This document shows positions 2 to 1,263 of a stretch of 64,000 nucleotides of DNA, one piece after another (the first letter of the stretch is position 1; each line of letters opens with the position of its first letter). The stretch lies in NCBI RefSeq assembly GCF_044647545.1, contig NZ_CP172818.1; one strand, 5' to 3'. The position numbers and the translations under genes are program-made. This DNA is from Escherichia coli (lineage in GTDB: Bacteria > Pseudomonadota > Gammaproteobacteria > Enterobacterales > Enterobacteriaceae). The notes under the pieces were generated by a model that was given only the letters and a program-made list of their open reading frames with translations, was not told the origin of the DNA and ran no database searches.

Positions 2-439
2 CAGATGCTGAAAAAAGTCGGCCTGGAAGGGGCGGAAAAACGCTATATCTGGCAGCTTTCCGGCGGTCAACGTCAGCGGGTAGGGATTGCCCGCGCGCTG
101 GCGGCGAATCCCCAGCTGTTATTACTCGACGAACCGTTTGGCGCGCTGGACGCCTTCACCCGCGATCAGATGCAAACCCTGCTGCTGAAACTCTGGCAGG
201 AGACGGGCAAGCAGGTGCTGTTGATTACCCACGATATAGAAGAAGCGGTGTTTATGGCGACTGAACTGGTTCTGCTTTCATCCGGCCCTGGCCGCGTGCT
301 GGAGCGGCTGCCGCTCAACTTTGCTCGCCGCTTTGTTGCCGGGGAACCGAGCCGCAGCATCAAGTCCGATCCACAATTCATCGCCATGCGCGAATATGTT
401 TTAAGCCGCGTATTTGAGCAACGGGAGGCATTCTCATGA
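2..439 (+). CDS. tauB: taurine ABC transporter ATP-binding subunit, C-terminal part (5' end lies upstream of window)
   Basis: ORF 5..439 contains ABC signature LSGGQRQRV and Walker B LLLLDEP; reading frame is open back to the window edge; 4-bp overlap with tauC. Confidence 0.9.
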
Positions 440-1263
440 GTGTGCTCATTAATGAAAAACTGCATTCGCATCGGCTGAAATGGCGCTGGCCGCTCTCGCG
501 TCAGGTGACCTTAAGCATTGGCACGTTAGCGGTTTTACTCACTGTATGGTGGGCGGTGGCGGCGCTGCAACTGATTAGCCCGCTGTTTTTGCCGCCACCG
601 CAACAGGTCCTGGCAAAACTGCTCACCATTGCCGGACCGCAGGGATTTATGGACGCCACGCTGTGGCAGCATCTGGCAGCCAGCCTGACGCGCATTTTGC
701 TGGCGCTACTCGCGGCGGTGTTGATCGGTATTCCGGTCGGGATCGCCATGGGGCTAAGCCCGACGGTGCGCGGCATTCTGGATCCGATAATCGAGCTTTA
801 TCGTCCGGTGCCGCCGCTGGCTTATTTGCCGCTGATGGTGATCTGGTTTGGTATTGGCGAAACCTCGAAGATCTTACTGATCTATTTAGCGATTTTTGCA
901 CCGGTGGCGATGTCGGCGCTGGCGGGGGTGAAAAGCGCGCAGCAGGTTCGCATTCGTGCCGCCCAGTCGCTGGGTGCCAGTCGTGCGCAGGTGCTGTGGT
1001 TTGTCATTTTGCCCGGCGCGCTGCCGGAAATCCTCACCGGATTACGCATTGGTCTGGGTGTGGGCTGGTCTACGCTGGTAGCGGCGGAGCTGATTGCCGC
1101 GACGCGCGGTTTAGGATTTATGGTTCAGTCAGCGGGTGAATTTCTCGCGACTGACGTGGTGCTGGCGGGGATCGCGGTGATTGCGATTATCGCTTTTCTT
1201 TTAGAACTGGGTTTGCGCGCGTTACAGCGCCGCCTGACGCCCTGGCATGGAGAAGTACAATGA
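436..1263 (+). CDS. tauC: taurine ABC transporter permease
   Basis: 275 aa polytopic membrane ORF with ABC permease (EAA-like) region; ATGA overlap with tauB and tauD. Confidence 0.9.

Follow-up and report, generated by a model that had tools for sequence, protein, structure and literature searches.

Stop/start overlaps at six gene junctions of an Escherichia coli window: likely translational coupling of five cellular pairs and frameshifting in IS3

The commonest spacing between adjacent genes, both in E. coli and in a set of 1,695 species, is a four-nucleotide overlap (-4), followed by the sharing of a single nucleotide (-1) (Huber 2023, PMC10666635; Brown & Wade 2025, PMC12548453). Spacings of -8 to +6 nt account for 24% of E. 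coli unidirectional pairs, and subunits of heteromeric complexes are 4.5-fold enriched among the short-spaced pairs (PMC10666635). When native E. coli -4 pairs were assayed in reporters, in the one systematic study of such pairs, four of the five were found to be coupled and bioB/bioF was independent, with a variable dependence on the SD; fragments spanning -99 to +30 were enough for coupling, and termination-reinitiation was argued to be the mechanism (Huber 2019, PMC6728339). According to Huber et al., termination-reinitiation requires overlaps or very short gaps (PMC6728339, PMC10666635). In the work of Saito et al., RRF depletion left both coupling and the ribosome-density ratios of overlapping pairs unaltered genome-wide, and these authors favour de novo initiation helped by the melting of structure (PMC7538156). 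In the IS3 family, transposase activity resides in the OrfAB fusion, and the level of frameshifting sets the level of transposition (PMC5009743). The pseudoknot published for IS3 extends from GCCGC, 5 nt past the frameshift motif, across the orfA UGA (PMC4066793). All the elements described below fall into these classes (-4/-1 stop/start overlaps and IS3-family programmed frameshifting) and are, therefore, already known. We consider it very probable that the cellular overlaps are ordinary stop/start overlaps of co-transcribed neighbours, with translational coupling likely for the five cellular pairs, and that the IS3 pair is expressed by frameshifting.

The window, by which we mean the whole 64-kb stretch of DNA analysed, is a segment of the E. 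coli chromosome that begins within tauB, of which it has the 3' part, and reaches cyoB (about 386.5-450 kb on the K-12 map). It agrees with the K-12 RefSeq annotation in gene order and lengths, and this annotation was carried to the window via the stop position of each ORF and the length of the K-12 gene. A valid start codon and an intact frame were found in every transferred gene but acpH. The identity of all the proteins at the six overlap junctions was confirmed with Pfam, and the RefSeq annotations of K-12 and FDAARGOS_497 have the same gene boundaries as the window. The backbone is not that of K-12, to which its identity is about 97.5-98%. A recoded or synthetic K-12 derivative was considered as the backbone because the best 25-kb match reached only 97.6%, but this possibility was ruled out, since codon positions 3, 1 and 2 carry 703, 80 and 33 substitutions, respectively, relative to K-12, and two tested 8-kb stretches were 100% identical to a natural lineage including FDAARGOS_497, Ecol_881 and ECONIH1. 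The search of the whole window against Rfam at gathering thresholds gave 0 matches and thus revealed no frameshift element or leader of the curated kinds.

Two features located elsewhere in the window are more unusual than the stop/start overlaps. A block of 1,154 nt (37632-38785) has a GC content of 5-10%, long A runs and no ORF of more than 42 aa. It stands in place of the inner part of a natural island of 1.44 kb (strain CLSC36) and takes away the native acpH stop. None of the 5,426 complete genomes of E. coli that were searched contains this block, and an exact 27-mer from the A-rich sequence had no match in metagenome contigs. The second feature (3726-6511), comprising the 5' part of yaiT and IS3, is 100% identical to K-12 within the otherwise non-K-12 backbone. 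These features look like artefacts of assembly, gap-filling or construction, or a very odd recombinant.

The sequence-only reading had listed six junctions, and five of these were correct when the bases were read (Table 1): tauB/tauC, tauC/tauD, sbcD/sbcC and insE/insF have true 4-nt ATGA overlaps, and xseB and ispA share one nucleotide within TAATG. The remaining junction, cyoC/cyoD, had been described as an ATGA overlap at 62215-62218 and was wrong in kind, since these positions read AATG and the real overlap is of 1 nt (minus strand ...gcgatg-TAATG-agtcat; 62220 to 62211, g-t-a-a-t-g-a-g-t-c). The ATGA string at 62217-62214 consists of the cyoD ATG and the first base of the second codon, AGT, and involves no 4-nt overlap. 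In the K-12 annotation, cyoD (447717-448046) and cyoC (448046-448660) have 1 nt (448046) in common, and the overlap of the tau, sbc and ins pairs amounts to 4 nt in K-12 RefSeq coordinates. The ATGA at tauB/tauC is identical in K-12 and FDAARGOS_497. All six listed pairs do overlap, but three longer overlaps in the window had been missed (cyoB/cyoC, -11; thiL/pgpA, -23; panE/yajL, -38).

Table 1. Genes, SDs, stop/start overlaps and frameshift site at the six junctions (positions in the window)
Feature	Position	Strand	Basis or remark
tauB 3' part, taurine ABC transporter ATPase	1..439	+	Truncated by window start; ORF 5..439; stop TGA 437-439; Pfam ABC_tran, RefSeq
tauC SD GGGAGG, within tauB	423..428	+	ATG 7 nt downstream by direct count
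ATGA, -4 spacing: tauC ATG 436-438 on tauB TGA 437-439	436..439	+	Bases read
tauC, ABC transporter permease, 275 aa	436..1263	+	ORF, Pfam BPD_transp_1
tauD SD GGAG, within tauC	1249..1252	+	-6.4 kcal/mol
ATGA, -4 spacing: tauD ATG 1260-1262 on tauC TGA 1261-1263	1260..1263	+	Bases read
tauD, taurine dioxygenase, 283 aa	1260..2111	+	ORF, Pfam TauD 1.8e-74
IS3 element, 1258 bp, inside yaiT	5095..6352	-	Terminal inverted repeats; 3-bp GAT target duplication 5092-5094 and 6353-6355
insF = IS3 orfB, 288 aa from ATG, DDE integrase core	5125..5991	-	ORF, Pfam on fusion; annotated from ATG in RefSeq
ATGA, -4 spacing: insF ATG 5991-5989 on insE TGA 5990-5988	5988..5991	-	Bases read; within published frameshift-stimulating pseudoknot region
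insE = IS3 orfA, 99 aa, HTH	5988..6287	-	ORF, Pfam HTH_Tnp_1
Programmed -1 frameshift site C_CAA_AAG: zero-frame codons CAA AAG (6026-6021) and preceding C	6021..6027	-	Sequence; motif named for IS3 (PMC5009743, PMC4066793)
sbcC, SMC-like ATPase subunit, 1047 aa	25900..29043	-	ORF, Pfam
ATGA, -4 spacing: sbcC ATG 29043-29041 on sbcD TGA 29042-29040	29040..29043	-	Bases read
sbcD, nuclease subunit, 400 aa	29040..30242	-	ORF, Pfam, RefSeq
ispA, farnesyl diphosphate synthase, 299 aa	54373..55272	-	ORF, Pfam
TAATG, -1 spacing: xseB TAA 55274-55272 and ispA ATG 55272-55270, common base 55272	55270..55274	-	Bases read
xseB, exonuclease VII small subunit, 80 aa	55272..55514	-	ORF, Pfam
cyoD, cytochrome bo3 subunit IV, 109 aa	61888..62217	-	ORF, Pfam
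TAATG, -1 spacing: cyoC TAA 62219-62217 and cyoD ATG 62217-62215, common base 62217	62215..62219	-	Bases read
cyoC, cytochrome bo3 subunit III, 204 aa	62217..62831	-	ORF, Pfam

Among the 37 co-directional adjacent pairs of the window, four have a spacing of exactly -4 and another two of -1. About 21 pairs lie within -40 to +60, giving a flat expectation of about 0.2 per position and a probability of about 7e-5 of finding four or more at one position. Seven of the 37 pairs (19%) have a spacing of -8 to +6 nt, and the spacing pattern of the window is typical of the genome-wide norm. Overlap cannot be read from ATGA at a start codon, since an A follows the start codon in about half of the window genes (31 of the 59 tabulated). 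The overlaps had also been taken to support the gene boundaries chosen. RefSeq and Pfam bear out the names and boundaries of the genes, but the independent support contributed by the overlap is weak. In all six frames, ORFs of 60 aa or more gave seven juxtapositions at -4 in the window; four of these were spurious, lying antisense to known genes or in their alternative frames, and shuffled windows gave 1.6 on average. The -4 juxtaposition of ORFs is, by itself, a weak argument for a gene boundary, since about half of the cases at this length were spurious here; with ORFs of at least 100 aa, the real -4 pairs alone remained.

These counts bear on a reading in which the overlaps are by-products of compaction or mutation with no translational role, the downstream genes starting independently at their own SDs. 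The -4 spacing would then be common because the start codon already gives three of the four NTGA bases. The frequent A after the start codon and the spurious ORF pairs likewise placed at -4 are consistent with such an origin, and bioBF initiates de novo despite its ATGA overlap (PMC6728339). However, the other four of the five native E. coli -4 pairs tested were coupled, and the conservation of the tau junctions also speaks against this reading, which we regard as unlikely.

The cross-species comparison was carried out for the tau junctions and within a single order, Enterobacterales: a TauC scan of GTDB species representatives yielded 80 Enterobacterales loci, with 80-97% amino-acid identity. 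The spacing from tauB to tauC was -4 in 78 of the 80 usable loci, and that from tauC to tauD was -4 in 79 of 81, K-12 having been added to the 80 loci of the scan. The exceptions involve an insertion of 1.3 kb, probable damage to a locus and one start that did not align. The GAGG core before tauC did not vary in 78 species, nor did the GGAG core before tauD in 80 species. In the junction columns, NTGA was fixed and the spacer between the SD and the start was variable. The upstream protein ended in Ser, Leu, Val, Ala or Gln, and the third base of this last codon was always A or G, so a start codon was kept; Ser-2 of the downstream protein was always encoded by AGY and never by TCN. Both junctions were, thus, kept in about 98% of the 80 species while the adjacent bases and the last upstream residue varied, which suggests constraint, although the test is not a clean one, since loss of the overlap would also alter the protein ends. 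This conservation reflects an ancestral state retained under constraint in one order rather than repeated independent origin, because the sample consisted of Enterobacterales only.

If the five cellular pairs are coupled, the ribosome translating the upstream gene would terminate atop the downstream start codon, which is preceded by an SD within the upstream coding sequence. The terminating ribosome, or its 30S subunit, may then re-initiate at the downstream gene; alternatively, the ribosome, as it passes, may prevent the initiation region from folding, so that a new 30S subunit can use it. The outputs of the paired genes would thereby be linked, a dependence of the downstream on the upstream gene that we infer from the geometry and its conservation, both of which were observed. 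An intragenic SD near the downstream start, with a spacing within -8 to about +10 (TeRe criterion), was present for tauC, tauD, sbcC and cyoD, weak for ispA and absent for insF. The SD energies were -10.3 kcal/mol for tauC, -8.4 for cyoD (GGGGG), -6.6 for sbcC, -6.4 for tauD and -3.2 for ispA, with a window median of -5.7. The SD/anti-SD duplex of tauC was the second strongest among the 59 genes, with a spacer of 6 when measured from the 9-nt best duplex ACGGGAGGC. The GGAG before sbcC lies 10 nt from the ATG by direct count, and the spacer is 9 from the best duplex. The SDs of tauC, tauD, sbcC and cyoD, all at or above the median, are good enough for independent initiation; this counts against coupling and is in keeping with the by-product reading discussed above. 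The weakness of the ispA SD, by contrast, makes fully independent initiation less likely at that junction.

Coupling might also operate only through de novo 30S initiation after the upstream ribosome has melted inhibitory mRNA structure, with no re-initiation by the same ribosome. This is the route favoured by Saito et al. (PMC7538156), and the lack of effect of RRF depletion speaks against a leading role for re-initiation in E. coli. However, local folds (-60 to +40) at nine junctions were not more stable than shuffled controls (z -1.3 to +1.0), and the start regions were 37-68% unpaired on average; there was, thus, no positive sign of unfolding-type coupling in these folds. The sufficiency of the short reporter fragments, from which termination-reinitiation was argued, also weighs against an exclusive role for melting (PMC6728339). 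We therefore hold this exclusive form of coupling to be a possibility, with somewhat less than an even chance of being correct.

The overlapping pairs leave no intergenic room for a terminator. We take the operons concerned to be tauABCD, sbcDC, xseB-ispA-dxs and cyoABCDE. Three pairs, TauB-TauC (ABC transporter), SbcC-SbcD and CyoC-CyoD, are partners in complexes, in keeping with the 4.5-fold over-representation of such subunits in short-spaced pairs. TauC-TauD and XseB-IspA are presumably not complex partners, so stoichiometric coupling would have no obvious purpose there; XseA, the partner of XseB, is encoded elsewhere in the genome. It is improbable, in our view, that an obligatory and selected expression ratio exists for tauC and tauD (a transporter permease and a cytosolic dioxygenase) and for xseB and ispA (unrelated partners, with a weak ispA SD). 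Were such a ratio to exist, translation of IspA would be tied to the making of XseB, as would access to the ispA-dxs portion of the operon, and DNA repair (XseB) and isoprenoid supply (IspA) would then be linked by regulation.

The literature consulted yielded no coupling experiments on sbcD/sbcC, tauC, cyoD, xseB or other pairs of the window. For each cellular pair taken singly, we infer coupling from the overlap, as a reasonable and fairly probable reading rather than a demonstration. The statement that the overlaps indicate coupling holds in a probabilistic sense only: coupling is likely, given that four of five native pairs displayed it, but bioB/bioF was uncoupled (PMC6728339). The description of the overlaps as typical of operon partners is appropriate for the -4 and -1 spacings (PMC12548453, PMC10666635), with the tau junctions conserved in about 80 species, but it does not extend to insE/insF, a frameshifted single gene. 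The overlaps confirm the correctness of the window's annotation and the ordinary E. coli look of its operons, and they matter little.

The insE and insF genes are two frames of one IS3 transposase gene and not operon partners. The IS3 of the window is 100% identical to K-12 IS3, and its inverted repeats are TGATCCTACCCA.../TGATCTTACCCA.... The orfB frame is -1 relative to orfA and is open upstream to 6042. The slippery site C_CAA_AAG lies 30 nt upstream of the ATGA, and a -1 slip gives a 387-aa OrfAB fusion with the Pfam domains HTH_Tnp_1, HTH_21, rve and rve_2. A CGCGA/UCGCG stem was identified by eye, with a loop, CAUACU, complementary to the AGUAUG right after the ATGA. The ATGA lies within the frameshift signal and does not mark an operon junction. 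Ribosomes would slip by -1 at C_CAA_AAG (6027-6021) to produce the OrfA-OrfB fusion, the active transposase, and a downstream pseudoknot spanning the orfA stop would stimulate slippage; the ATGA would permit merely a minor free OrfB product via re-initiation.

It could be argued that insE and insF form a translationally coupled two-gene operon in which InsF, made from its own ATG, is the transposase, since the ATGA is real and RefSeq annotates insF from that ATG. A free OrfB protein was also discussed for IS3 by Sekine 1997, as cited elsewhere, but the title of that paper casts OrfB as an inhibitor and not as the transposase. Furthermore, transposase activity in the IS3 family belongs to the OrfAB fusion (PMC5009743), and the slippery site and the open -1 frame are both present here. 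The domain layout suggests that the HTH domain of OrfA and the rve core must belong to one polypeptide, and no SD precedes the insF ATG (-0.2 kcal/mol, the second-weakest of the 59). A two-gene operon of this type is consequently very improbable. The start region of insF was the most base-paired of the nine junction start regions folded. Sekine et al., in 1994, reportedly ascribed IS3 OrfB to coupling or re-initiation at the ATGA.

The closest counterparts of the -1 pairs are in the trp operon, in which trpE/trpD and trpB/trpA are classical -1 overlaps (TGATG/TAATG class). The xseB/ispA and cyoC/cyoD pairs similarly share one stop/start base, but their stop is TAA, not TGA, and XseB and IspA are functionally unrelated proteins. 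The tauB/tauC, tauC/tauD and sbcD/sbcC pairs share geometry, organism and an intragenic SD with the -4 pairs hyfH/I, astD/B, ydbH/ynbE and menD/H, and with the exception bioB/F (Huber 2019). The pairs of the window lie outside that set, and their coupling would be an extrapolation from its success rate of four in five. The insE/insF arrangement corresponds to the -1 frameshifting of the IS3 family (IS3, IS911, IS150), with which it shares an orfB placed in frame -1, an A_AAG-type slippery motif and a fusion of HTH and DDE domains, along with a putative stimulatory structure downstream; the window element does not differ from IS3, and is IS3, the ATGA being a secondary feature. IS91 is also a mobile element, and the stop of its regulator ORF, orf121, overlaps the start of the transposase gene, tnpA, and raises transposase expression (PMC13181058). 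IS91 thus makes its transposase by genuine coupling, whereas IS3 does so by frameshifting, with coupling yielding, at most, free OrfB.

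In four pairs of spurious ORFs in the window (see table), start and stop codons likewise overlap by 4 nt, and in one pair the overlap is a perfect ATGA. The ORFs making up these pairs are at least 60 aa long and lie antisense to known genes or in alternative frames of them, and they illustrate that the overlap motif does not, by itself, validate genes. A further ORF (56113-57222, - strand; 369 aa, GTG start) is antisense to most of thiI, and its start has one base in common with the yajL stop; it is probably a long antisense frame occurring by chance. The sequence-only reading, which had claimed ATGA start/stop overlaps between adjacent genes, did not include the three longer overlaps of cyoB/cyoC, thiL/pgpA and panE/yajL. 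Spacings within the reported range for coupling were also found for nrdR/ribD (+3), secD/secF (+10), cyoD/cyoE (+11) and sbmA/yaiW (+12).

Overlapping ORFs and genes, and shortened spacers, with their positions in the window
Feature	Position	Strand	Length or difference	Locus
Spurious ORF pair	17425-18029	-	4-nt overlap	dgcC
Spurious ORF pair	49115-50028	-	4-nt overlap	nusB-thiL
Spurious ORF pair	53755-54362	+	4-nt overlap	dxs
Spurious ORF pair	62245-62849	+	4-nt overlap	cyoC-cyoB
Gene overlap	62821-62831	same strand	11 nt	cyoB/cyoC
Gene overlap	50887-50909	same strand	23 nt	thiL/pgpA
Gene overlap	57775-57812	same strand	38 nt	panE/yajL
Spacer	45395-45427		about 130-140 nt shorter vs K-12	yajD-tsx
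Spacer	52434-52485		about 130-140 nt shorter vs K-12	yajO-dxs

The spacer between the convergent genes tauD and hemB (2112-2135) is only 24 nt long. It has 15 nt fewer than the sequence of FDAARGOS_497, a strain of the natural lineage matching the tested stretches of the window backbone, and is otherwise identical to it; the K-12 spacer is different and has 106 nt. The missing 15 nt correspond to the left arm of a ATGCCGGGTT/AACCCGGCAT hairpin, which is likely to be a bidirectional terminator. The additional K-12 DNA in the yajD-tsx and yajO-dxs spacers probably consists of REP-type repeats, missing from the window. The convergent genes iprA (+) and ampH (-), the latter with a TTG start codon, abut at 8531/8532 with zero bases between them, and there is therefore no room for a terminator. 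The sbcC product has 1047 aa, versus 1048 aa in K-12, because of a 3-nt in-frame deletion at about position 26599.

A low-GC block of 1,154 nt (37632-38785; 5-10% GC) separates the stop codon of malZ from the 3' end of acpH. On the + strand its sequence is A-rich and of low complexity: the near-pure A tracts reported by TRF reach about 190 nt (81% match), and uninterrupted runs of A extend over several tens of nucleotides. It contains no ORF above 42 aa. The insertion of this block takes away the native stop codon of acpH (38735-39361, - strand), the frame of which continues for 15 extra codons into the block, so the product has 208 aa versus 193 aa. K-12 lacks the block, and so do all 5,426 complete genomes of E. 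coli, with coverage reaching 45% at best. Metagenome contigs contained no exact copy of a 27-mer taken from the part of the block with the highest complexity. Apart from small deletions, the first ~50 nt of the block can be aligned with the left end of an island in strain CLSC36, a natural island of 1.44 kb (30-43% GC) carrying a frameshifted hypothetical gene; past the A-rich sequence, the match to CLSC36 picks up again at 38784, with 100% identity. The block has the look of an artefact or of synthetic filler, or else of a sequence that would be highly unusual in bacteria.

A sharp-edged patch of 2.79 kb (3726-6511) is 100% identical to K-12 and comprises the 5' part of yaiT/ehaB, the IS3 element at its K-12-specific insertion site and ~160 nt further. 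Both flanks match the FDAARGOS_497-type lineage, in which ehaB is intact and lacks IS3, the right one at 100% and the left one with three mismatches and the 15-nt deletion in the tauD-hemB spacer. Comparison with K-12 and this lineage suggests that the patch arose by recombination, by reference-guided filling of a gap or as a chimera.
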